Positions 1,430 through 11,950 of a DNA stretch of 12,106 nucleotides are shown in pieces. The notes under the pieces are model-generated. The model worked only from the letters and a program-made list of their open reading frames with translations. It was not told where the DNA came from and made no database searches. How positions within the stretch are numbered: position 1 is the stretch's first letter; each line of letters starts with the position of its first letter. Origin of the DNA: Archangium sp. (GTDB taxonomy: Bacteria; Myxococcota; Myxococcia; Myxococcales; Myxococcaceae); NCBI GenBank assembly GCA_031367385.1, contig JANLPS010000296.1:1-12106 (forward strand), given 5' to 3'. Both the position numbers and the translations under genes were made by a program.

Positions 1430-2305
1430 ATGGAGCTACCGATGTTGTCGCAAGGCCGCGCGGAAACCCGGCCACCCCCGGCAGAGAACGCGTCGCCCCC
1501 AGACGCCTACAGCATCGAACCCGGCAATAGGTACTTCGACGCGATCAGCGCGGTCGCCAACTTCGAATTACGGCCCGGGCCGTCGGTCTCATTCATGGCC
1601 GAGGTCGACCTGACCCAGGTACACGCTGTTCGCCAGCGCGCGGCAGCCGGCGCGAAGCCCTCGTTCACCGCCTTCGTCGCCAAGGCCATCGCCGTCGCCT
1701 TGAAAGAATTTCCGTACGCCAACCGCCGGGTGTGCCGCCCGCCCTCGCTGCTGTGGTTGGTGACGCGGTTGCAACGCTTCACCCGGTGCGACATCGCAAT
1801 CGCCTCGGAGCGTGATGTGCCCGGCGCCGAGTCGGTGGCCTTCTTCGACGTGTTTCGCGACGTCGACCGGCTTACGCTCGAGGGCTTGACCCACGGCCTG
1901 CGCGAGCTCTCGACCAGCGACGCATCAACCAACGCGCAGTGGCGTGCATTCAGCACGCTCGTGACCCGGTTGCCGGCATGGCTGTCGACCCTGCTGATCC
2001 GCCTGCCCTACTTCTTCCCCCACCTGTGGGTGCGCTACCGCGGGGCGGCAGTGCTGATCAGCTCACCCGCGAAGTACGGCGTCGATGCCGTGATGGCAAC
2101 GCAGTCGTTCCCCTTGTCGGCGGCGTTTGGGCTCGCCAAGCTGCGGCCAGTGGTTCGCGATGGGCGTCTCGAGCCGTGCCTCACCTTCGCCCTGACGGTC
2201 AACTTCGACCGGCGCATCATGGCCGGCGCCCAGGCCGCGCGCTTCTTTCGGCGCGTCGTCGAGGTGCTCGAGTCGGCTGAAACCTCGCTCTCGCACTCGC
2301 CATGA
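1430..2305 (+). CDS. Stand-alone 2-oxoacid dehydrogenase E2-like acyltransferase catalytic domain, active-site motif degenerate
   Basis: AEVDLT, FTAFVAKAIAVALKEFPYAN and RPVVRDG...LTVNFDRRIMAGAQAARFF align with the E2 catalytic domain. No lipoyl or E3-binding domain. The start may be ATG 1442 (GGAG at 1432-1435). Confidence 0.85.
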   Translation: MELPMLSQGRAETRPPPAENASPPDAYSIEPGNRYFDAISAVANFELRPGPSVSFMAEVDLTQVHAVRQRAAAGAKPSFTAFVAKAIAVALKEFPYANRRVCRPPSLLWLVTRLQRFTRCDIAIASERDVPGAESVAFFDVFRDVDRLTLEGLTHGLRELSTSDASTNAQWRAFSTLVTRLPAWLSTLLIRLPYFFPHLWVRYRGAAVLISSPAKYGVDAVMATQSFPLSAAFGLAKLRPVVRDGRLEPCLTFALTVNFDRRIMAGAQAARFFRRVVEVLESAETSLSHSP

Positions 2306-2751
2306 CCATGCGCTCCATCGAGACTTCAATCGAGATCGCCGCACCCCTCGAGCGAGTGTGGGCGATCTTGAGCGATCTGTCGGCCTATCACGAGTGGAAC
2401 CCTTTGATTCGCGAAGCGAGCGGCGACTTGCAACCGGGCGGCCTGGCGCAGCTGTTCATCGCCACGCCTGGCCTGGCCAAAAGGCGCGTGGCAGTCAGAG
2501 TGCTCGCGCTCGACCCTTTGAAAGAAATTCGCTGGCTCGGTCGGCTCCTGCTGCCGGGCGTGCTCGATGGCGACCACCGCTTCGTGTTGAGCCCACTGTC
2601 AGCCGGGCGGGTGCGGGTGGTTCAGCAAGAGGCGTTTCGCGGGCTCTGCGTGCCCTTCGTCGAACGGTGGCTGTTGCCCAAAATGACGCTCGGCTTTCAG
2701 GCCATGAACGAGGCGCTTCGGCAGCGAGCGGAGGCGCCCGTGCCCGGTTGA
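2302..2751 (+). CDS. SRPBCC (polyketide cyclase/START-like) domain protein
   Basis: IETSIEIAAPLERVWAILSDLSAYHEWNP N-terminus and GFQAMNEALRQRAE C-terminal helix. ATGA overlap with the upstream stop; alternative start 2308. Confidence 0.9.
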   Translation: MTMRSIETSIEIAAPLERVWAILSDLSAYHEWNPLIREASGDLQPGGLAQLFIATPGLAKRRVAVRVLALDPLKEIRWLGRLLLPGVLDGDHRFVLSPLSAGRVRVVQQEAFRGLCVPFVERWLLPKMTLGFQAMNEALRQRAEAPVPG

Positions 2752-4055
2752 AGCGGCCGACGAACAACGCAGGGCGCCCGCCACCGGCGCTGTTCTCGGG
2801 CCTTCTTCTGCTGAGTCTGGGGCTCATGAGCGCGTGCTCAGGCGAGCGAGTCGTCGCCATTCAAGGCGGAGCCGACGCGGGGCCCGACGAGGTGACCCTC
2901 GAGCGGCAGTGGGGCGTGTACGCGCTCTCGTTTGCGATTGATCGCTGCCCCGATGCCGGCCTGCTGGTTGTTGATACCCTCGCAGACGAGCTCGAGGGCG
3001 GCGCAGGGCTCAACGCGCGCGCCGGTGCGGGGCTGCGGCTTTCGCTGCGCGAGGCACTCTGGCTCGCCGCCAATACGCCAGGGCAACACCTGATCACCTT
3101 CGACCCGATGGTGTTCGCGCCGAGCTCGGGCGCGACCATCTCGATGACTGACGACGCGGAGCCGTTTCCGCCTCCTCTGGTCGACACGTGCATCGATGCT
3201 CGTGGCCTCAGCGTCATCGTCGACTTTCAGGGCTGCGCGCGAAACTGCGCCTGGTCACTCGACCGCCGGTCACAGATGATCGGCCTGGTGCTCAAGGGCG
3301 ACATGGCCATGATGCGCGCGTCAGACGCAGTGGTGGCGGGCAACCGTTTCATGGTGAGGGGCGTCGCCGTTCAAGCCGCGAACGGAGCGGTCATCGGCCC
3401 GTCGAACGTGTTCGGGCACGGCGGCACCGCGGTGCGCATCGACGCCAGCGCCTCCGGGGCAACCACCATACCCAGCGTCGAAGAAAATTCATTCGGCGTC
3501 GAGCCAGCCACGGGCGCAGACCTGGGCCTGGGCGTAGCGGTGTCAGCGGTGGGCCGGCTTCGAATCATCAACAACGTCAGCAACGCGGCGATGGAGCTGG
3601 GCGGCAACGAAGGGGGAGGACTTTCGGCCAACCAGCTCGTTCACAGCGGTGCCAAACCGCCGCGAGTCACCCTGAGTGGAGACGGTTGGCTCATCAGCCA
3701 GAACCTGCTCGGGGGCGGGGTGGAGAACAGCCCCCCAGCGGGGCAAGGCAATACGGTGATTCAAAACATCATCGACGAGAGCCTGGTCAGCGTCGGCGCA
3801 GTCGCTCCACCGACCGATGGGGGCGTGGGCTCGGTCAGCGGTACCTGCCCACCGGTGGTGGGCATGGTCGAGCTCTACTCACATCTTGGAGCGCGGTGGT
3901 CTCCGGTCGCTTTCACGACGTGCGAACCAGGCGCAGAGTGGAGCCTGACCTCGGCGTCGCTCGTGCCCGGAGTCGAGGTGAGCACGCTCTTTACCGTGAC
4001 GACCAAGCCCAACACCGGGCCGTTCAGCGCGCCGTTGACGATTCACGCCCCGTAG
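2748..4055 (+). CDS. Putative lipoprotein with CSLREA-like motif and right-handed beta-helix region (~435 aa)
   Basis: TTG at 2748 overlaps the SRPBCC stop (TTGA). A hydrophobic stretch ends in LMSA-C (Cys codon 2835). VVDTLADE...LSLREALWLAANTPGQHLITFD (LSLREA at 3039-3056) is followed by Asn/Gly-rich strands (VAGNRF, IGPSNVF, EENSFG, IINNVS, SQNLLG, IQNII). The track's 2358 start overlaps SRPBCC and is unlikely; the true start is uncertain. Confidence 0.75.
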   Translation: MKRPTNNAGRPPPALFSGLLLLSLGLMSACSGERVVAIQGGADAGPDEVTLERQWGVYALSFAIDRCPDAGLLVVDTLADELEGGAGLNARAGAGLRLSLREALWLAANTPGQHLITFDPMVFAPSSGATISMTDDAEPFPPPLVDTCIDARGLSVIVDFQGCARNCAWSLDRRSQMIGLVLKGDMAMMRASDAVVAGNRFMVRGVAVQAANGAVIGPSNVFGHGGTAVRIDASASGATTIPSVEENSFGVEPATGADLGLGVAVSAVGRLRIINNVSNAAMELGGNEGGGLSANQLVHSGAKPPRVTLSGDGWLISQNLLGGGVENSPPAGQGNTVIQNIIDESLVSVGAVAPPTDGGVGSVSGTCPPVVGMVELYSHLGARWSPVAFTTCEPGAEWSLTSASLVPGVEVSTLFTVTTKPNTGPFSAPLTIHAP

Positions 4056-4058
4056 CGC

Positions 4059-5438
<1,380 letters not shown>

Positions 5439-5485
5439 GGCTCCTCTATTCCACAACCACTCCTTCTGCGTTAGAGCCGCCGTTC

Positions 5486-6502
5486 ATGATTCGGGTCGCC
5501 GTCATCGGAGCGGGCCATTGGGGCCCCAACCTCGTTCGAAACTTTCATTCTGGGCAAGGCAGCGTGGTGACGCACGTGGTCGACACGCGGGCGCAGCGCC
5601 TCGAGCAACTCGCGCCCCGCTACCCCGGCGTGCACTTCGGGGCCGACGCCTCGGTGCCGCTTCGTGACCCGGCGGTCGACGCGGTGGTGGTGTCGACTCC
5701 CACCGCGACGCACTACGAAGTGGTTCGCCAGGCCCTCGAGGCCGGCAAGCACGTGTTGGTCGAGAAACCCATCACCACCACCGTGCGTGAAGCCGAGTCG
5801 CTCAACGCATTGGCGACCAAGCTGCACAAAGTGCTGATGGTCGGGCACGTTTTTTTGTTCAACCCCGCCGTACAGCGGGTCAAGCAGCTGCTTCAGAAGA
5901 ACGAGCTGGGCGGCATTCACTACATCTCGATGGTGCGCACGAACTTAGGGCCCATTCGAGCCGACGTGAACGCCGCGTGGGACCTGGCGTCGCACGACAT
6001 CTCGATCGCCGATTACTGGTTGGGCCACGGCGCGGTCGCGGTGTCGGCCGTCGGTGGCAGCTACGTGAACCCGGGCATTCAAGACGCCGTGTTCGCGACG
6101 CTGACGTACCCGAACAAGGTGTTGGTCAACGTGCACTGCAGCTGGCTCAACCCGCGCAAGGCCCGCGACATCACCGTGGTCGGAGATCGCCGCATGCTCA
6201 CCTTCGACGACATGAACTTGAACGAGCCGGTGCGGGTGTACGACAAGGGCATGGTCGACCCGGCTCCGGCGGCGGTGGTCGATACCTTCGCCAGCTTTCG
6301 CGCGTCGGTGCGCGAGGGTGACATCACCATTCCCAAAGTGGCGATGGGCGAGCCGCTCAAGACTGAGTGCGAGCACTTCTTGGAGTGCATCGCGAAGGGC
6401 TCCGAGCCCCTGACCAACGCGACGCGCGCGGCTTCGGTGGTGCGAGCGCTCGAGGGCATCGCCCGGTCGCTTACGCTGCGCGGTGCCGAGGTGACGCTGT
6501 GA
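5486..6502 (+). CDS. Gfo/Idh/MocA family oxidoreductase, probable NDP-sugar dehydrogenase
   Basis: Rossmann VAVIGAGHWG, HVLVEKP, MVGHVFLFNP and WDLASHD motifs. Coupled to a DegT aminotransferase. Confidence 0.93.
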   Translation: MIRVAVIGAGHWGPNLVRNFHSGQGSVVTHVVDTRAQRLEQLAPRYPGVHFGADASVPLRDPAVDAVVVSTPTATHYEVVRQALEAGKHVLVEKPITTTVREAESLNALATKLHKVLMVGHVFLFNPAVQRVKQLLQKNELGGIHYISMVRTNLGPIRADVNAAWDLASHDISIADYWLGHGAVAVSAVGGSYVNPGIQDAVFATLTYPNKVLVNVHCSWLNPRKARDITVVGDRRMLTFDDMNLNEPVRVYDKGMVDPAPAAVVDTFASFRASVREGDITIPKVAMGEPLKTECEHFLECIAKGSEPLTNATRAASVVRALEGIARSLTLRGAEVTL

Positions 6503-7605
6503 TACCGCTGGTCGACTTAAAGGCGAATTACCTGAGCATCGAGGCCGAGGTGCTCGAGGGCATGCAGCGCGTGCTCTCGACCACCGCCTTCATTCTCGGG
6601 CCCGACGTCGCTGAATTCGAAAAAGAATACGCGGCCTTCGTTGGCGCCAAGCACTGCATCGGCGTCGCCAATGGCACCGACGCGCTCGAGCTGCTCGTTC
6701 GCGCAGCGGGGTTGAGCGGTCAAGACGAAGTGCTCGTGCCCGCCAACTCGTTCATCGCGAGCGCGCTCGGCGTTCAGCGAGCCGGAGCCACCGTGCGCTT
6801 CGTCGACTGCGACGATGACGGGCTGATTGACGTCGAGTCGTGCGCGGCGCGAGCGACGGCGAAGACCCGGGCGGTGTTGCCGGTGCACTTGTATGGGCAG
6901 TGCGCCCCCATGGAGCGGGTCGAAGCCTTCGCGTCGTCAGTGGGGCATGTGCTGATCATCGAAGATGCGGCGCAGGCACAGGGCGCTCGTCGCAACGGGC
7001 GCTCGGCTGGCACCTGGGGCTTCGGCGCGGGCACCAGCTTCTACCCGGGCAAGAACCTGGGCGCCTATGGAGACGCGGGCGGCATCACCACCAATGACGA
7101 CGCCGCCGCGAAGAAGCTTCGAGCGCTGCGAAATTACGGCAGTGAGGTGAAGTACTTTCACCCCGAGGCCGGGTTCAACAGCCGCCTCGACACGATTCAA
7201 GCAGTGGTCTTGCGCGCGAAGCTCAAGCGCCTGAGCGAGTGGAACGCAGCTCGCCGTGCCGCAGCCGAGCGGTACGTGAGCCTGCTGGGCGGCTTCAAAG
7301 ACCTTCGCTTGCCCCGCGTGGTGCCCGGCAACGAGCACATCTGGCACCTCTACCCGGTGCGCGTGCCCGCGACGCTTCGCGACGCGGTCGTCAAGTCGAT
7401 GCAAGCCGCCGGAGTGGGTGTGGGCATTCACTACCCCGTGCCGATTCATTTGCAGGGCGCGTACGCGTCGCTGGGGCACGCGGCCGGTGATTTTCCTCGG
7501 GCTGAGGCGCAGGCGGCCGAGATGATCAGCTTGCCGATGTACCCAGAGCTCACGGTTGATCAGCAAGCGCACGTGGCCGACGCGCTCAAGAAGGCCATGG
7601 CGTGA
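6499..7605 (+). CDS. DegT/DnrJ/EryC1/StrS PLP-dependent NDP-sugar aminotransferase (368 aa)
   Basis: IPLVDLK, GVANGTDAL, PVHLYGQ, IEDAAQAQG, SFYPGKNLGAYGDAG (PLP Lys) and NSRLDTIQA. GTG at 6499 overlaps the upstream TGA. Confidence 0.95.
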   Translation: MIPLVDLKANYLSIEAEVLEGMQRVLSTTAFILGPDVAEFEKEYAAFVGAKHCIGVANGTDALELLVRAAGLSGQDEVLVPANSFIASALGVQRAGATVRFVDCDDDGLIDVESCAARATAKTRAVLPVHLYGQCAPMERVEAFASSVGHVLIIEDAAQAQGARRNGRSAGTWGFGAGTSFYPGKNLGAYGDAGGITTNDDAAAKKLRALRNYGSEVKYFHPEAGFNSRLDTIQAVVLRAKLKRLSEWNAARRAAAERYVSLLGGFKDLRLPRVVPGNEHIWHLYPVRVPATLRDAVVKSMQAAGVGVGIHYPVPIHLQGAYASLGHAAGDFPRAEAQAAEMISLPMYPELTVDQQAHVADALKKAMA

Positions 7606-8384
7606 TTCGAAACTTACGAGAGTTGTACCAGTACCGCGCGCTCCTCTGGGCGCTCACCGTTCGCGAGCTCAAGGCCCGCTACCGCGCCAGCGTGCTCGGC
7701 TTTCTGTGGACGTTCTTGAACCCGACGCTGAGCATGGCGGTCTACGTGCTCGTCTTCGGCTGGCTGATGGAGTCAGACACGCCGAGATTTCCCTACTACG
7801 TGTTCTCGGGCCTCCTGCCGTGGATCTACTTCTCGAGCTCGGTCGGCGCGGGCACCAGCGCGGTCAGCGAGCGCCGTGACCTGCTGACCAAAGTGCGTTT
7901 CCCCGCGCAGGTGTTGCCGGCGACGGTGGTGCTCACCAACGCGATCAACTTTCTGCTCTCGATACCGCTGCTGGTGTTGCTCGGGTTGGTTTACCGCCAG
8001 TTTCCAACCTGGCACTTCGTGTTCATCGTGCCGCTGCTGCTGGTGCAGACCTTGTTCACCCTGGCGATCACCTACGTGCTCTCGGCGATCAACGTGGCCT
8101 TTCGCGACCTGCAGCACATCATCGGCAACGTGCTGCAGCTGGCCTTCTTCGTTACGCCGATCATCTGGCGCCTCGAGCAGGTGAAGACGGTCGAGCAGCA
8201 GCACCTGGTGCTCTACGTGAACCCGATCGCCGCGCTGGTCGAGGCCTGGCACGACGTGCTGTTTCGCCAGAAGGTGCCCGAGACGATGCCGCTGCTGGTG
8301 GTGAGCGTGCTCTCGGTCGTCATGATGTGGCTCGCTTCAGGCGTGTTCGAGCAACGCCGTGAAGAGTTCGCGGAGCTCATCTAG
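7602..8384 (+). CDS. wzm: ABC-2 type polysaccharide export permease
   Basis: RELKARYRASVLGFLWTFLNP, GLLPWIYF, FRDLQHI, FFVTPIIW and several hydrophobic segments. GTGA overlap with the upstream gene. Confidence 0.93.
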   Translation: MIRNLRELYQYRALLWALTVRELKARYRASVLGFLWTFLNPTLSMAVYVLVFGWLMESDTPRFPYYVFSGLLPWIYFSSSVGAGTSAVSERRDLLTKVRFPAQVLPATVVLTNAINFLLSIPLLVLLGLVYRQFPTWHFVFIVPLLLVQTLFTLAITYVLSAINVAFRDLQHIIGNVLQLAFFVTPIIWRLEQVKTVEQQHLVLYVNPIAALVEAWHDVLFRQKVPETMPLLVVSVLSVVMMWLASGVFEQRREEFAELI

Positions 8385-8385
8385 A

Positions 8386-9675
8386 ATGGCGGGCGACAAG
8401 CACGCAGTCGTGGTGACCAACGTCACCAAACACTTCAAGAAAGTGGCCAAGCGCCGCGAGTACACGACCTTCAAGAGCGAGCTGGTGCGCTTCATCAAGG
8501 GTGACCGCGGCGTCAACGAGCCGACGCAGTACATCGAGGCGCTCAAGGGCGTCGACCTGGTGGTGCCCAAGGGCTCGACGGTCGGCATCATCGGCCGCAA
8601 CGGGTCGGGCAAGAGCACGCTGCTCAAGCTGATCACCGGCATCTACGCGCCGACCTCGGGCACGGTGCAGGTCAACGGGCGAATCTCAGCGCTGCTCGAG
8701 CTCGGCGCTGGCTTTCACCCCGACTTCAGCGGCCGAGAGAACATTTTGATCAACGGCATCATTCTCGGCATGAGCCGCGCCGAGGTGAAAGACCGCATGG
8801 AGGAGATCATCTCGTTCGCCGAGCTCGGTGAGTTCATCGATGAGCCGGTGCGCACCTATTCGAGCGGCATGTTCATGCGCCTGGCCTTCGCGGTCGCCAC
8901 CCACGTCGACCCCGAGCTGCTGATCGTCGACGAGATTCTCTCGGTCGGTGACGAGCACTTCGCCAAGAAGAGCCAGGCGAAGATGACCGAGTTCAAGACC
9001 TCGGGCAAAACGATTCTGCTGGTTACCCACGGTCTCGATGCGGTCGAGAAGTGGTGCGACCTCGCGGTGTGGATTGATGGGGGCAAGACCCGGTTGATGG
9101 GGTCTCCGGCGCACGTGGTGGCGGAGTACCGGCGCGCGGTGAACGCGGCTGAAGCACAAGACGCGAAGACCGGGCACTCGGCGTTGTCGGCGCCTGGGTT
9201 GGCGTTGCCCGAGATGGTCACTCCACCTTCGGCGCAAGAATCATTGCGCGCGGTGAGCGTGTCGGTGGTCGACGGCTCGGGGCAGCGGCCGCAGGCCTTC
9301 TTGGCCGACGCGAAGCTCGACGTGCTGGTCGACTTCGAGGCGACCGTGGCTCAGGCCGGCGAGTGCAGCGTCGATGTGCAGACCGCCGACGGTCGTCTGC
9401 TGTTCAGCTCGATCTTCTTGACCGGGTCGCTGCCGGTGGGCACCGGGCGGGCGCGAATGACGATCGCGCGGCTGGGCCTCGGTGAAGGCTCGTGGACCAT
9501 CGCAGCCTCGGTGCACGCGCCGGGAGCGACTCCGATGACCGCGGCGACGACGTCGTTCTTGGTGGCGCCGCACCCGGGTACCGGGTTGGTGCGCTTGCAG
9601 CACACCTGGTCGGTCGAAGGCCGCCCCCCCGAAGTCGATGCCCCCGTGCCCGGTCAACCGGTGGCGCGCGCGTAA
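8386..9675 (+). CDS. wzt: Polysaccharide export ABC ATPase with C-terminal extension (putative carbohydrate-binding domain)
   Basis: Walker A GRNGSGKS, ELGAGFHPDFSGRENI, signature YSSGM, Walker B LLIVDE and H-loop VTH, then a beta-rich C-terminal domain ending GLVRLQHTW. ATG lies 1 nt after the wzm stop. Confidence 0.93.
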   Translation: MAGDKHAVVVTNVTKHFKKVAKRREYTTFKSELVRFIKGDRGVNEPTQYIEALKGVDLVVPKGSTVGIIGRNGSGKSTLLKLITGIYAPTSGTVQVNGRISALLELGAGFHPDFSGRENILINGIILGMSRAEVKDRMEEIISFAELGEFIDEPVRTYSSGMFMRLAFAVATHVDPELLIVDEILSVGDEHFAKKSQAKMTEFKTSGKTILLVTHGLDAVEKWCDLAVWIDGGKTRLMGSPAHVVAEYRRAVNAAEAQDAKTGHSALSAPGLALPEMVTPPSAQESLRAVSVSVVDGSGQRPQAFLADAKLDVLVDFEATVAQAGECSVDVQTADGRLLFSSIFLTGSLPVGTGRARMTIARLGLGEGSWTIAASVHAPGATPMTAATTSFLVAPHPGTGLVRLQHTWSVEGRPPEVDAPVPGQPVARA

Positions 9676-10952
9676 TGGCCACGGTCGGTGACCTGCGCAC
9701 CCTGGTCGCGCGCCGCGTGGGCTTGAAGCGCCGGGTGGCCATGCTGGGCAGTGACGCGGCGTTGGTGAATTCACTGCAGCAAAACGGCTGCGAGCTGTTG
9801 GTCGACCCGGGCTCCCTCGAAGAAATCGCAGGGTTCTCGCCAGAGGTCGTGGTCGCCTTCGACGGGTTCGTGCTCGACGATGGGCGCGCGGCGTTTGCGA
9901 TGCTGGCGAAGGCAGTGCCGGCGGCCGAGGTGGTGTTCTCTTTCGCGCATGCGGGCTCGGCGACGGCCACGGTGACCGCGCTGACCGGCGCGAGCCCCGT
10001 CAAAGCCTTCGCCGAGCGCGACGTGAATGACTGGTTGGGCGCGGCTGGGTACGCAGTGACGTCTCGTGACGTGGTGGTGGTGCCGCATGTCGCCTCTGGG
10101 CTCTCGGCCGACACCGAGTCAGCGCTGCGGCAGCTCTTCGAGCAGCTGAACCCCGATGCGGCGGCCGACCGCCTGCTCGTCGTGGCCAAGCGCGGATCCG
10201 CGGTCACCCGGCCAGAGCGCACCAAAGGCCTGATCTCGGTCGTGATTTCAGCAGGGGCCGACGGGCCAGCGCTCGAAGGCACCCTGGCGTCGCTGGTCGG
10301 TCAACAGCAGCGCCCGATGGAGCTGGTGCTCAGCTCGGCGTTGTCGCTCGAGAAGACCGACGCGCTGCTCTCGAAGGCGCGGGCCCGTGCGGGCATCACC
10401 CCGGTGGCGGTGAGTTGCACGTCGAATGACTGGGCCGCGCGAACGAACGCAGGGCTCGCGCAGGCGCAAGGGCAATACCTCGCGTGCGTCGAGGCCGGAG
10501 ACCTGCTCACGCCGTTTCACCTGGCGGCGTTGGTGAAGCGCTTGGCCGATGGCACGCGGGCCTGGGCCTTGAGCGCGTCGGCGACGGGGCTGCCTTCAGC
10601 GTTCTCTTTGGCGACGTGGCTTCAGAGCGGTGCGGTGGCGCGGCAGAGCTACGTCATCGATCGTGATCGCACCGCGGCCTTTCCCCTCACGTTCGCCGAG
10701 GGTGTCGCCGGCGCCGAGGCGATGCGCTTCGCGCGACTGGCTGCGTTGTTCGAGCCCGAGTGGCTGTGCGGCGCTCCGAGCATCGAAGGTGTTCAGCCCG
10801 CGGTGGGTGGCCTCGAGACGCTCCTCGAGGCAATGCGTACCAGGCCGTTGCGAATGGTGACTGCCTTGAGCGAGGTGCTGAAGGTGCCCGCTGCGCCGCG
10901 GCTTCGAGACGTGCTGAGCGCTCGTGTCAAAGGTCTGACCCGTTCGCGCTGA
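9675..10952 (+). CDS. Fusion of degenerate class I SAM-methyltransferase-like domain and degenerate GT2 (GT-A) domain (425 aa)
   Basis: TAATG overlap with wzt. The C-terminal half (LISVVI...LEGTLASLVGQ...ELVL...AARTNAGLAQAQGQYLACVEAGD...P.HLAALV) follows the GT2 pattern. The N-terminal half (RRVAMLGS...GC...EVVVAFD...VVFSFAH...WLGAAGY...NPDAAADRLLVVA) follows glycan-cluster methyltransferases. Confidence 0.75.
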   Translation: MATVGDLRTLVARRVGLKRRVAMLGSDAALVNSLQQNGCELLVDPGSLEEIAGFSPEVVVAFDGFVLDDGRAAFAMLAKAVPAAEVVFSFAHAGSATATVTALTGASPVKAFAERDVNDWLGAAGYAVTSRDVVVVPHVASGLSADTESALRQLFEQLNPDAAADRLLVVAKRGSAVTRPERTKGLISVVISAGADGPALEGTLASLVGQQQRPMELVLSSALSLEKTDALLSKARARAGITPVAVSCTSNDWAARTNAGLAQAQGQYLACVEAGDLLTPFHLAALVKRLADGTRAWALSASATGLPSAFSLATWLQSGAVARQSYVIDRDRTAAFPLTFAEGVAGAEAMRFARLAALFEPEWLCGAPSIEGVQPAVGGLETLLEAMRTRPLRMVTALSEVLKVPAAPRLRDVLSARVKGLTRSR

Positions 10953-11011
10953 GCGACCGCTGCAAAAGTGATGGGGCGCCTCGCCGCTTCAGGGCAGACT
11001 GCCCGCTGCGA

Positions 11012-11950
11012 ATGCGAAAATTTGGGCTCGTGTGTGGCGCGGTGGTGATGACCGTCTTGGGTGGCTGCATCTGCTCAGGTGGGGTCGATGACGCAGACCC
11101 GTGCGCGCACAGCCTGTGCCTTGACGCAGGGGGCGGGCCCTCCGGTGATTCGGGAGTGCCCGATGCTGGTCAGCGCTCCAACGACGCGGGGGTCGCCACG
11201 GGAGACGCGGGCACCAGCCCCGCTGACGCCGGGCGCAACCCTGCTGACCCGGTGTATGACGGGCCCACTTCACTCTCGTGCAGCGACGTCGGCGAGGTCT
11301 GCGCGACGACGTGTGCCGATGGTGGGTGCCCCACCTGCAAGACGAGTGGTTCTTGCATAGCGCACTGTGATGACGGGCATTGCCCTCAGAGCTGCAGCGA
11401 CGACGCCAGGTGCACGCTGTGGTGCGACCGGGGTGACTGCTCGCAGGCCTGCATTCACTCCAGCCTGCAGTGTGCTGCGTCGTGTACCCAGGGCCGGTGT
11501 CGTCAGGTCATGTATCAGCAGCCGGGTGACACGAGTTTGTGGTGTGACGATGGGTCGTGCGACCAGGCCTGCGCTGAGACCATTGGGAGTTGCTCGCTGT
11601 GGTGCAACCGCGGCTCATGCCGTCAACAGTGCACCTCGCCAGGCACGGGGTGCTCGCTGGAGTGCGAGAAGGGTTCGTGCGACCAACGCTCCTATTCCCA
11701 GAGAGCTCCACGCCCGACCGATGGCACGAACGCGTTCTGGTGCAGCGAGGGTACGTGCTCGCAGCGCTGCGGCGGCAACCAGACCTGTGTCATGCGCTGC
11801 ATGGACGGCGGCTGCACGATGAGCTGTCTCGACTCGGCGACGTGTCTGTTCGACTGCAGCGGGCCTGGGGGCCATTGCAAGACCCACTGCGAGCCGGGCG
11901 CGCACTGCACCGAGCAGTGTCGGCCTGATGGCGGCTGCACTCGTTTCTGA
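11012..11950 (+). CDS. Cys-rich repeat lipoprotein (312 aa)
   Basis: MRK, a hydrophobic stretch and LGG-C lipobox (Cys19); a Gly/Asp/Pro linker with five DAG motifs; then 40 Cys in residues 90-309 arranged in ~19-20 aa repeats. The track's 10760 start overlaps the upstream gene. Confidence 0.85.
   Translation: MRKFGLVCGAVVMTVLGGCICSGGVDDADPCAHSLCLDAGGGPSGDSGVPDAGQRSNDAGVATGDAGTSPADAGRNPADPVYDGPTSLSCSDVGEVCATTCADGGCPTCKTSGSCIAHCDDGHCPQSCSDDARCTLWCDRGDCSQACIHSSLQCAASCTQGRCRQVMYQQPGDTSLWCDDGSCDQACAETIGSCSLWCNRGSCRQQCTSPGTGCSLECEKGSCDQRSYSQRAPRPTDGTNAFWCSEGTCSQRCGGNQTCVMRCMDGGCTMSCLDSATCLFDCSGPGGHCKTHCEPGAHCTEQCRPDGGCTRF

Follow-up and report, generated by a model that had tools for sequence, protein, structure and literature searches.

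What is a stand-alone E2 acyltransferase domain for, when the histidine at the centre of its active site has become an arginine? All E2 sequences are described as sharing a conserved D-H-R motif (PMC8421416), but the gene considered here departs from it. The gene lies in a 12,106-nucleotide stretch of Archangium sp. DNA (contig JANLPS010000296.1), referred to below as the window, in which the following features matter for the argument.

1430..2305, + strand: stand-alone protein P0001 with an E2 fold, a member of the Arg-for-His family, from the ORF, the PF00198 match and an AlphaFold model
1934..2038, + strand: residues 169-203, predicted as three helices, within which lies an insertion of roughly 30 residues, from alignment and the AlphaFold model
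2054..2080, + strand: L209-I-S-S-P-A-K-Y-G217, with Ser211 (2060-2062) at the position of Ser558 of A. vinelandii E2p, from alignment
2207..2227, + strand: D260-R-R-I-M-A-G266, Arg261 standing where the catalytic His would be and Ala265 where Asp or Asn would be, from sequence and alignment
2302..2751, + strand: SRPBCC/Polyketide_cyc2 protein, its start overlapping the stop of the E2-like gene
2748..4055, + strand: uncharacterised protein with a lipoprotein-like signal (judged by eye), overlapping the SRPBCC stop

The frame at 1430-2305 is open over 291 amino acids. The likely start is Met5 at position 1442, since a GGAG lies close upstream, the Atlas record starts at residue 5 and most homologues start later still; a scan of positions 1150-1500 found no promoter or terminator. 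The product matches PF00198 at 63.7 bits (cut-off 23), and no NCBIfam family is matched above its cut-off, the E2 models giving 39 bits against 722. An AlphaFold model (pLDDT 89, pTM 0.86) has E2 catalytic domains as its best Foldseek match (E 4e-16), with Z 24.3 and an rmsd of 2.4 Å over 220 aligned residues at 21% identity; CAT comes next (Z 14.7), and then condensation domains. The helical insertion is common to His-bearing stand-alone relatives, whereas canonical E2 lacks it. Its residues W171, P182, P193, P197 and W200 are invariant among close homologues, and it is a candidate lipid, membrane or partner surface.

The rest of the window is varied in content. Its first 168 bases, at the contig end, are a 21-base tandem repeat of about eight copies with a 42-base higher period, and a 318-residue ORF at 261-1217 on the minus strand, divergent from the E2-like gene, has no Pfam family and a weak match to PseC (E 0.039). 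Positions 4059-10952 encode a fumarase and then a Gfo/Idh/MocA oxidoreductase, a DegT aminotransferase, an ABC-2 permease with its ATPase and a GT2, which together look like an ordinary surface polysaccharide cluster. A repetitive Cys-rich ORF without a Pfam family lies at 10760-11950 on the plus strand. A domain scan of the 11 ORFs of the window found no lipoyl, E1 or E3 domain, in agreement with the initial annotation.

The motif itself was read again from the sequence, and its codons (GAC CGG CGC ATC ATG GCC GGC), like the PF00198 match, bear out the earlier report of D-R-R-I-M-A-G in an intact ORF. That report went on to say that both catalytic residues are replaced and that LISSPA stands where TISNLG is usual. 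The His and the Asp are indeed lost, and the second motif does differ, but Ser211, the third catalytic residue, is retained within LISSPA. E. coli E2p catalyses with His603, Asp607 and Ser551, and an Asp602-Arg604 salt bridge positions the His (PMC8421416); the corresponding structural pair, Asp260 and Arg262, is kept here. Ser211 is identified through the S558A mutant structure 1DPD, which reads TIASLG where 1EAA reads TISSLG, the changed position being the one that aligns with it. In a broader alignment of 112 rows, which left out His-bearing paralogues, Arg261 is present throughout (112/112), position 211 is Ser in 93 rows, Asn in 13 and Thr in 6, and S212, P213, K215, Y216 and G217 are nearly invariant. 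The spread at position 211 points to a hydrogen-bond donor rather than a fixed nucleophile. Active A. vinelandii E2p has Asn at the Asp position (DHRVING), so it is the loss of the His that is decisive. We also looked in this alignment for another His that might serve the active site; no His column rises above 26/112, so that no general base is evident, and no Cys column rises above 36/112. The conserved acids are E46, E127 and D219, of which E127 is common to His-bearing relatives. As the motif contains no base, acyl transfer of the CoA type is unlikely.

The substitution is a property of the family and not of this copy. A homologue search gave 376 matches among 7999 scored candidates; in the best 120 of these (54-97% identity), aligned together with the query, Arg261, Ala265 and Gly266 occur in 121/121 sequences, as DRRVMAG (97), DRRIMAG (18), DRNVMAG (3) and three singletons. 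Contigs from three of four sequencing runs span the motif without a single differing letter (two of these runs, but not X6, are marked as possible sources of the DNA), and a sequencing error is rejected on both counts. When a profile search was made without a word filter, His was found at this position in only seven rows among the best 150 listed, all at 120 bits or below. Position 261 in 124 domains from the fetched loci is Arg in 116, His in 4, Val in 1 and a gap in 3, counts that are not independent because the loci were found partly with motif patterns; the Arg is encoded by all six Arg codons across these loci. Fixation of the same Arg across the family is not chance, and its retention where the flanking motif residues differ (NRELSNG, QRELTTG) suggests that it has a positive role. 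Selection was estimated from 50 pairs with at least 75% identity and dS of 0.1-1.5, giving a median dN/dS of 0.10 (range 0.02-0.27); the window gene compared with its two closest loci gives dN 0.23 and dS 0.82-0.88. The proposal that DRRxxAG is a conserved clade motif under purifying selection thus stands, and the signs of decay that were looked for, namely close homologues retaining DHRxxDG or relaxed selection, were both missing from these sets. We reject simple decay on the strength of this purifying selection.

A quickly built tree of 77 rows, rooted at its midpoint (deep supports 86-87), separates the Arg sequences from canonical E2 and from stand-alone relatives that bear His, two His tips falling within the Arg group. 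Three changes on this tree fit a single gain of Arg and two returns to His, and in one tandem paralogue, reading DHRLMTG, the His has probably been regained. The family is spread through Planctomycetota, Acidobacteriota, Geobacteraceae, Bdellovibrionota, Myxococcota and Proteobacteria, and cultured carriers include Geobacter hydrogenophilus DSM 13691 and Tundrisphaera lichenicola P12.

Gene neighbourhoods were compared over 122 loci (43 from genomes, 78 from metagenomes, and the window), with genes called by our own script and recurrent clusters named from representatives. Flanks of 3 kb on either side are present in 46 of the loci, and 41 were left after removing copies of at least 90% identity. 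The most constant neighbour in this non-redundant set is a glycosyltransferase of one GT1 family, found in 34 loci and adjacent (within 400 bases) in 22. A nitroreductase of the Rv1355c/Acg type is found in 24 loci and a ThiF protein of family PRK08223 in 23, all 23 having both; a synthase of N-acyl amino acids, FeeM or ExoAT (TIGR03694), is likewise in 23, a PepA-like secreted or PEP-CTERM protein in 21 and a GMC oxidoreductase in 5. Exporter genes of FtsX/HlyD/OEP, MMPL and LolA-like types recur nearby, NDP-sugar genes of RmlA/B/D type occur in three loci, hexapeptide acetyltransferase-like genes in four and a FabH-like gene in only two. No acceptor-making gene recurs among the neighbours, and the idea of an amino-sugar acceptor was rejected since no aminotransferase recurs. 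The window's Gfo/Idh/MocA, DegT, ABC and GT2 genes are not recurrent in these neighbourhoods either, unrelated ABC ATPases aside. The SRPBCC family of the downstream gene is present in 11 of the 122 loci. The family of the 2748-4055 protein has four copies in the window's genome, with paralogues near GT1, GMC and FeeM genes on contig C203, and on C43; its relatives adjoin an E2-like gene in two Myxococcota loci (L025 and L039). The PepA-like domain is seen near the clusters both in secreted or PEP-CTERM proteins of small size and in large ones of the DUF7507/SdrD-repeat type (L006:3898-4863, L137:540-4775, L141:13160-18301). One Planctomycetota genome has at least six copies of the E2-like gene, with a large sigma-54 regulator at each locus (L012, L015, L019, L023, L026), together with GT1-FeeM and B12 radical SAM-FeeM fusions.

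Lipoyl N-termini and E1 fragments were also used as queries (E3 was not among them), and neither was found in the 122 loci. An inactive variant of E2 is known in E3BP (PMC7494870), to which the model aligns at Z 22.5. This speaks for reading the protein as an E2 copy in decay, or as an inactive E3BP-like member of a 2-oxoacid dehydrogenase core; yet the dN/dS values, this lack of lipoyl and E1 sequence, and the failure to find the gene in 40 relatives of the window's genome make either reading extremely improbable. The suggestion of an inactive partner to an active E2 paralogue is not supported either. The His-bearing paralogue accounts for only 4 of the 124 domains, all from tandem-copy loci, and the three canonical E2 genes of the window's genome are on other contigs.

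Eight longer forms of the protein are seen. Four consist of three tandem copies, and the other four are all GT1 fusions, one arranged E2-like-GT1-methyltransferase and three GT1-(nitroreductase)-E2-like. From the fold and the four natural three-copy chains a trimer is likely, as had been put forward, while a cage role finds no support here. The tandem E2-like paralogues, one reading DHRLMTG, are at L009:728-8736, L057, L076 and L083, and possibly form a heterotrimer. At L009 and L057 an E2-like-GT1 fusion is followed by three stand-alone copies, the L009 fusion carrying the methyltransferase domain; when this natural fusion was folded, its E2-like half was poorly modelled (pLDDT mostly <65, pTM 0.64).

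Genome-level data extend the association. Among 121 genomes from the order of G041, centred on Geobacter, the E2-like protein is in 4, the GT1 in 7 and ThiF in 11; all four carriers have both partners, with the GT1 adjacent. Among 121 genomes from the family of G043 (Isosphaeraceae), the E2-like protein is in 7, FeeM in 6 (5 shared) and a strong GT1 match in 5 (4 shared). Fisher p values for co-occurrence run from 6e-7 to 4e-5, and they overstate the case, since related genomes are not independent of one another and some searches scored only 15-21 candidates in each genome. Eight of ten tested loci that lack a nearby GT1 carry one elsewhere in the genome. In two genomes of the Geobacter order the locus is reduced to GT1, E2-like and PEP-CTERM genes, with ThiF and the synthase elsewhere in the genome. 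The window's genome has one member of the E2-like family; on contig C203 a single GT1 of this kind adjoins a GMC gene, with a FeeM gene not far off, C291 carries ThiF with FeeM, MMPL and LolA-like genes, and no nitroreductase or PepA-like match was found at E 1e-4. Among 40 relatives of this genome the E2-like gene is found in none and FeeM in one, so the gene set is patchy, and it has probably moved sideways.

The dependence appears to run one way. GT1 genes without the E2-like protein are found in three of the seven GT1 genomes of the Geobacter-centred sample, in 3 of the 40 relatives and on two plasmids (genomes with the GT1 alone include G085, G120, G158 and G276), and locus L136 keeps GT1, nitroreductase and ThiF with the E2-like gene absent. 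The E2-like protein is therefore not obligatory for the whole GT1 family. No GT1 was found in G218, G281, G284 and G292, although their E2-like motif is intact; G281 and G284 have lone copies, and in G218 this ThiF was not found. The natural GT1 fusions would suit a protein that purely activates the GT1 (and nitroreductase) allosterically or serves as their scaffold, in the manner of EryCII or the X domain, Arg261 doing no more than block or brace a dead site. The X domain has Arg at the same His position of the CAT fold and recruits P450s (PMC11546977), and the GT1 matches the 'activator-dependent' glycosyltransferases of TIGR04516, though its scores of 37-92 bits are far short of the cut-off, 440. 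However, near-invariance of the channel-motif residues S212, P213, K215, Y216 and G217 goes beyond the needs of a plug, and the existence of close GT1 relatives lacking an E2-like protein also counts against this role, which we consider improbable.

One-way dependence on the GT1 would also fit optional tailoring, in which the protein, as an O-acyltransferase drawing on acyl-CoA or acyl-ACP, would decorate the GT1-added sugar in the style of the tetronate enzyme Agg4, with the conserved acids E46, E127 and D219 to hand and its base being something else than His. Acetylation of natural products by stand-alone E2 domains is on record (PMC5819245), and a GT1-GMC cluster without the E2-like gene (L138:2433-9329) contains instead, along with an AMP-binding enzyme, a condensation-domain protein with an HHxxxDA motif. 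Against this, E127 is also found in His-bearing relatives, and hexapeptide acetyltransferase-like genes are already at hand in four loci. The motif has no base, and Arg is a poor one; we rate this decoration of the sugar as less likely still than pure activation.

What, then, do the neighbours make? In the OxzAB system, which was expressed in E. coli (10.1101/2020.06.11.147165), tyrosine is acylated by OxzA, and OxzB, a ThiF-nitroreductase, forms the oxazolone (10.1101/2020.06.11.147165; PMC12596934); predicted glycosyltransferases lie clustered with some of the oxzB genes (10.1101/2020.06.11.147165). The same trio of synthase, ThiF and nitroreductase has been connected with the stieleriacines and kindred N-acyl dehydrotyrosines (PMC12479983; for the ExoAT link, see PMC11072679 and PMC4897644). 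We regard it as very probable that the E2-like protein belongs to an oxazolone/N-acyl-tyrosine pathway that includes the GT1. The GT1 of these loci has a near-invariant His17 and an invariant Asp102, which we take to be its catalytic residues. One relative is annotated as a PGL/p-HBAD glycosyltransferase and another adjoins, downstream, a tyrosine isonitrile synthase; an isonitrile synthase followed by a glycosyltransferase is the arrangement of the rhabduscin cluster (PMC6386379). A rhabduscin-like arrangement of isocyanide synthases with this GT1 family is also seen on a Burkholderia stagnalis plasmid (L134:5355-11266). The GT1 is likely an aryl O-glycosyltransferase that would add a putative sugar to the phenol of a presumed tyrosine, and the neighbour set likely makes an exported phenolic glycolipid.

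The reading that we favour, with a probability of roughly 0.4, is that the E2-like protein forms a trimer without classical acyltransferase activity, which would bind an N-acyl-tyrosine or oxazolone lipid and present it to the co-encoded GT1. The FeeM or ExoAT synthase would make N-acyl-tyrosine; ThiF and the nitroreductase, judging by family membership and the OxzAB precedent, would cyclise and desaturate it to an oxazolone. The former inter-subunit channel of the trimer would hold this lipid, with Arg261 and Ser211/Ser212/Lys215 binding it through the carboxylate or the carbonyl of its ring, while the hydrophobic insertion would take up the acyl chain or contact the membrane. The GT1 would add a sugar, possibly rhamnose, to the phenol, and ABC or MMPL/LolA-like systems would export the product alongside PEP-CTERM surface proteins. 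Persistence of Arg261 together with the near-invariant residues at 212-217 argues that the site is not drifting, and a cationic, hydrogen-bonding pocket next to a hydrophobic insertion suits the binding of an acyl-amino-acid lipid. The GT1 is both the tightest partner (34/41 loci, 22 adjacent) and the fusion mate in all four long forms that are not tandem, which favours presentation by the trimer, and the X domain (HRxxxDD; PMC11546977) and EryCII (PMC3391682) provide precedents. Other observations fit less well: GT1 genes occur without the E2-like protein (L136 and the two plasmids among them), intact-motif proteins occur in the four genomes where no GT1 was found, the partners in the window's genome are on other contigs with nitroreductase and PepA-like genes not found, and the condensation protein of the L138 cluster keeps an intact HHxxxDA motif, which one would expect in a replacement acyltransferase. 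Retention of Ser211, and the probable regain of His in a tandem paralogue, fit a site capable of chemistry.

These last points lead to a His-free catalyst, a doubtful but possible reading that stands close behind the lipid-presenting trimer in our favour. Of the roles offered in the initial annotation, ligand binding and a different chemistry are the two still in play. Arg261 and Ser211 would polarise the carbonyl of the ThiF-made oxazolone, and an amine, a sugar hydroxyl or water would open the ring, so that the N-acyl-dehydrotyrosyl group is transferred or released. The invariant Arg261 and the kept Ser211 are consistent with this, as are the pairing of ThiF with nitroreductase in 23/41 loci and the GT1-nitroreductase-E2-like fusions; the probable regain of His and the HHxxxDA protein in a cluster without the gene point the same way. 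Acid and alcohols are reported to open oxazolones (PMC12856293), some condensation domains work with their His mutated or with Gln in its place (PMC11546977), and N-acyl dehydrotyrosine producers that carry ThiF show no oxazolone in the published account (PMC12479983). However, position 211 is Asn in 13/112 rows, no acceptor-making gene recurs, coupling to ThiF is looser than to GT1, the window's genome gave no nitroreductase match, and G218 has the E2-like protein without this ThiF. A bolder form, which we think unlikely, dispenses with the thioester donor as well as the His base and has the Arg/Ser oxyanion site ligating a glycosylated N-acyl-dehydrotyrosyl lipid, by way of the ThiF-made oxazolone as activated donor, to an acceptor on its way to the cell surface, alongside PEP-CTERM proteins.

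Whether the protein presents a lipid or acts on one, the Arg-for-His E2 family is real and conserved, with a function that we infer, and as far as we searched it is undescribed: we found no account of it in the literature, subscription papers and the bioRxiv supplements of the OxzB paper aside, the latter of which may bear on novelty. An Arg is fixed in place of the textbook E2 His across several phyla, and because the family is routinely annotated as an E2 subunit, metabolic reconstructions are misled. The family also marks an uncharacterised branch of the oxazolone/N-acyl-tyrosine pathway, likely ending in an exported phenolic glycolipid.

Compared with known systems, the family shares with the E2 of 2-oxoacid dehydrogenases (PF00198; 7B9K, 1EAA, 1B5S) the fold, the Ser at the Ser558 position and the flanking Asp and Arg, but differs in His to Arg, Asp/Asn to Ala, the lack of a lipoyl domain, the insertion of about 30 residues and the lack of E1 neighbours. 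It differs from E3BP (protein X) in having neither a lipoyl nor an E3-binding domain and in its gene context. The tetronate acetyltransferases Agg4, QmnD3 and AbmA4 likewise reuse a lipoyl-less E2 domain of about 280 residues in a small-molecule pathway (PMC5819245; see also PMC7489565 for stand-alone E2 acetyltransferases of such pathways). As described there, however, they are active O-acetyltransferases beside FkbH, ACP, FabH-like and Agg5-like genes, a distinction drawn from description and not from sequence, whereas the recurrent neighbours of the Arg family are GT1, nitroreductase, ThiF and FeeM/ExoAT. Its nearest outgroup is formed by His-bearing stand-alone E2-like proteins (P0295 from a Halorussus plasmid, P0270, P0252, P0265), which share the insertion and an ER motif but keep DH[RD]xxDG; two annotated archaeal loci among them lack the GT1/ThiF/FeeM set. 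Stand-alone E2-like genes occur in varied contexts on haloarchaeal plasmids (L132:5944-6705, L133:5911-6684), that of L132, when translated, having the His and the same insertion; these are a second uncharacterised family.

With the OxzAB and stieleriacine pathways the family shares the set of N-acyl synthase, ThiF and nitroreductase, of which the window's own genome gave the first two and not the nitroreductase; those publications, in the portions available, describe no E2-like component or glycosylated product. In the X domain of glycopeptide NRPS (HRxxxDD) a CAT fold likewise carries Arg where the catalytic His would be, and the domain recruits rather than catalyses (PMC11546977); its structure 4TX3 aligns to the model at Z 11.8. 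Unlike the Arg family it is a two-lobed condensation-type domain within an NRPS that recruits P450s, and the two are presumably unrelated by descent within the superfamily. EryCII/DesVIII is an enzyme homologue co-encoded with a GT1, which it stabilises and activates (PMC3391682); the Arg family shares the co-encoding, but EryCII/DesVIII has a P450 fold where the Arg family has an E2 fold, and the GT1 of the Arg family falls far below the TIGR04516 cut-off. By analogy, the E2-like protein may work most like the X domain or EryCII, while being a member of neither group.
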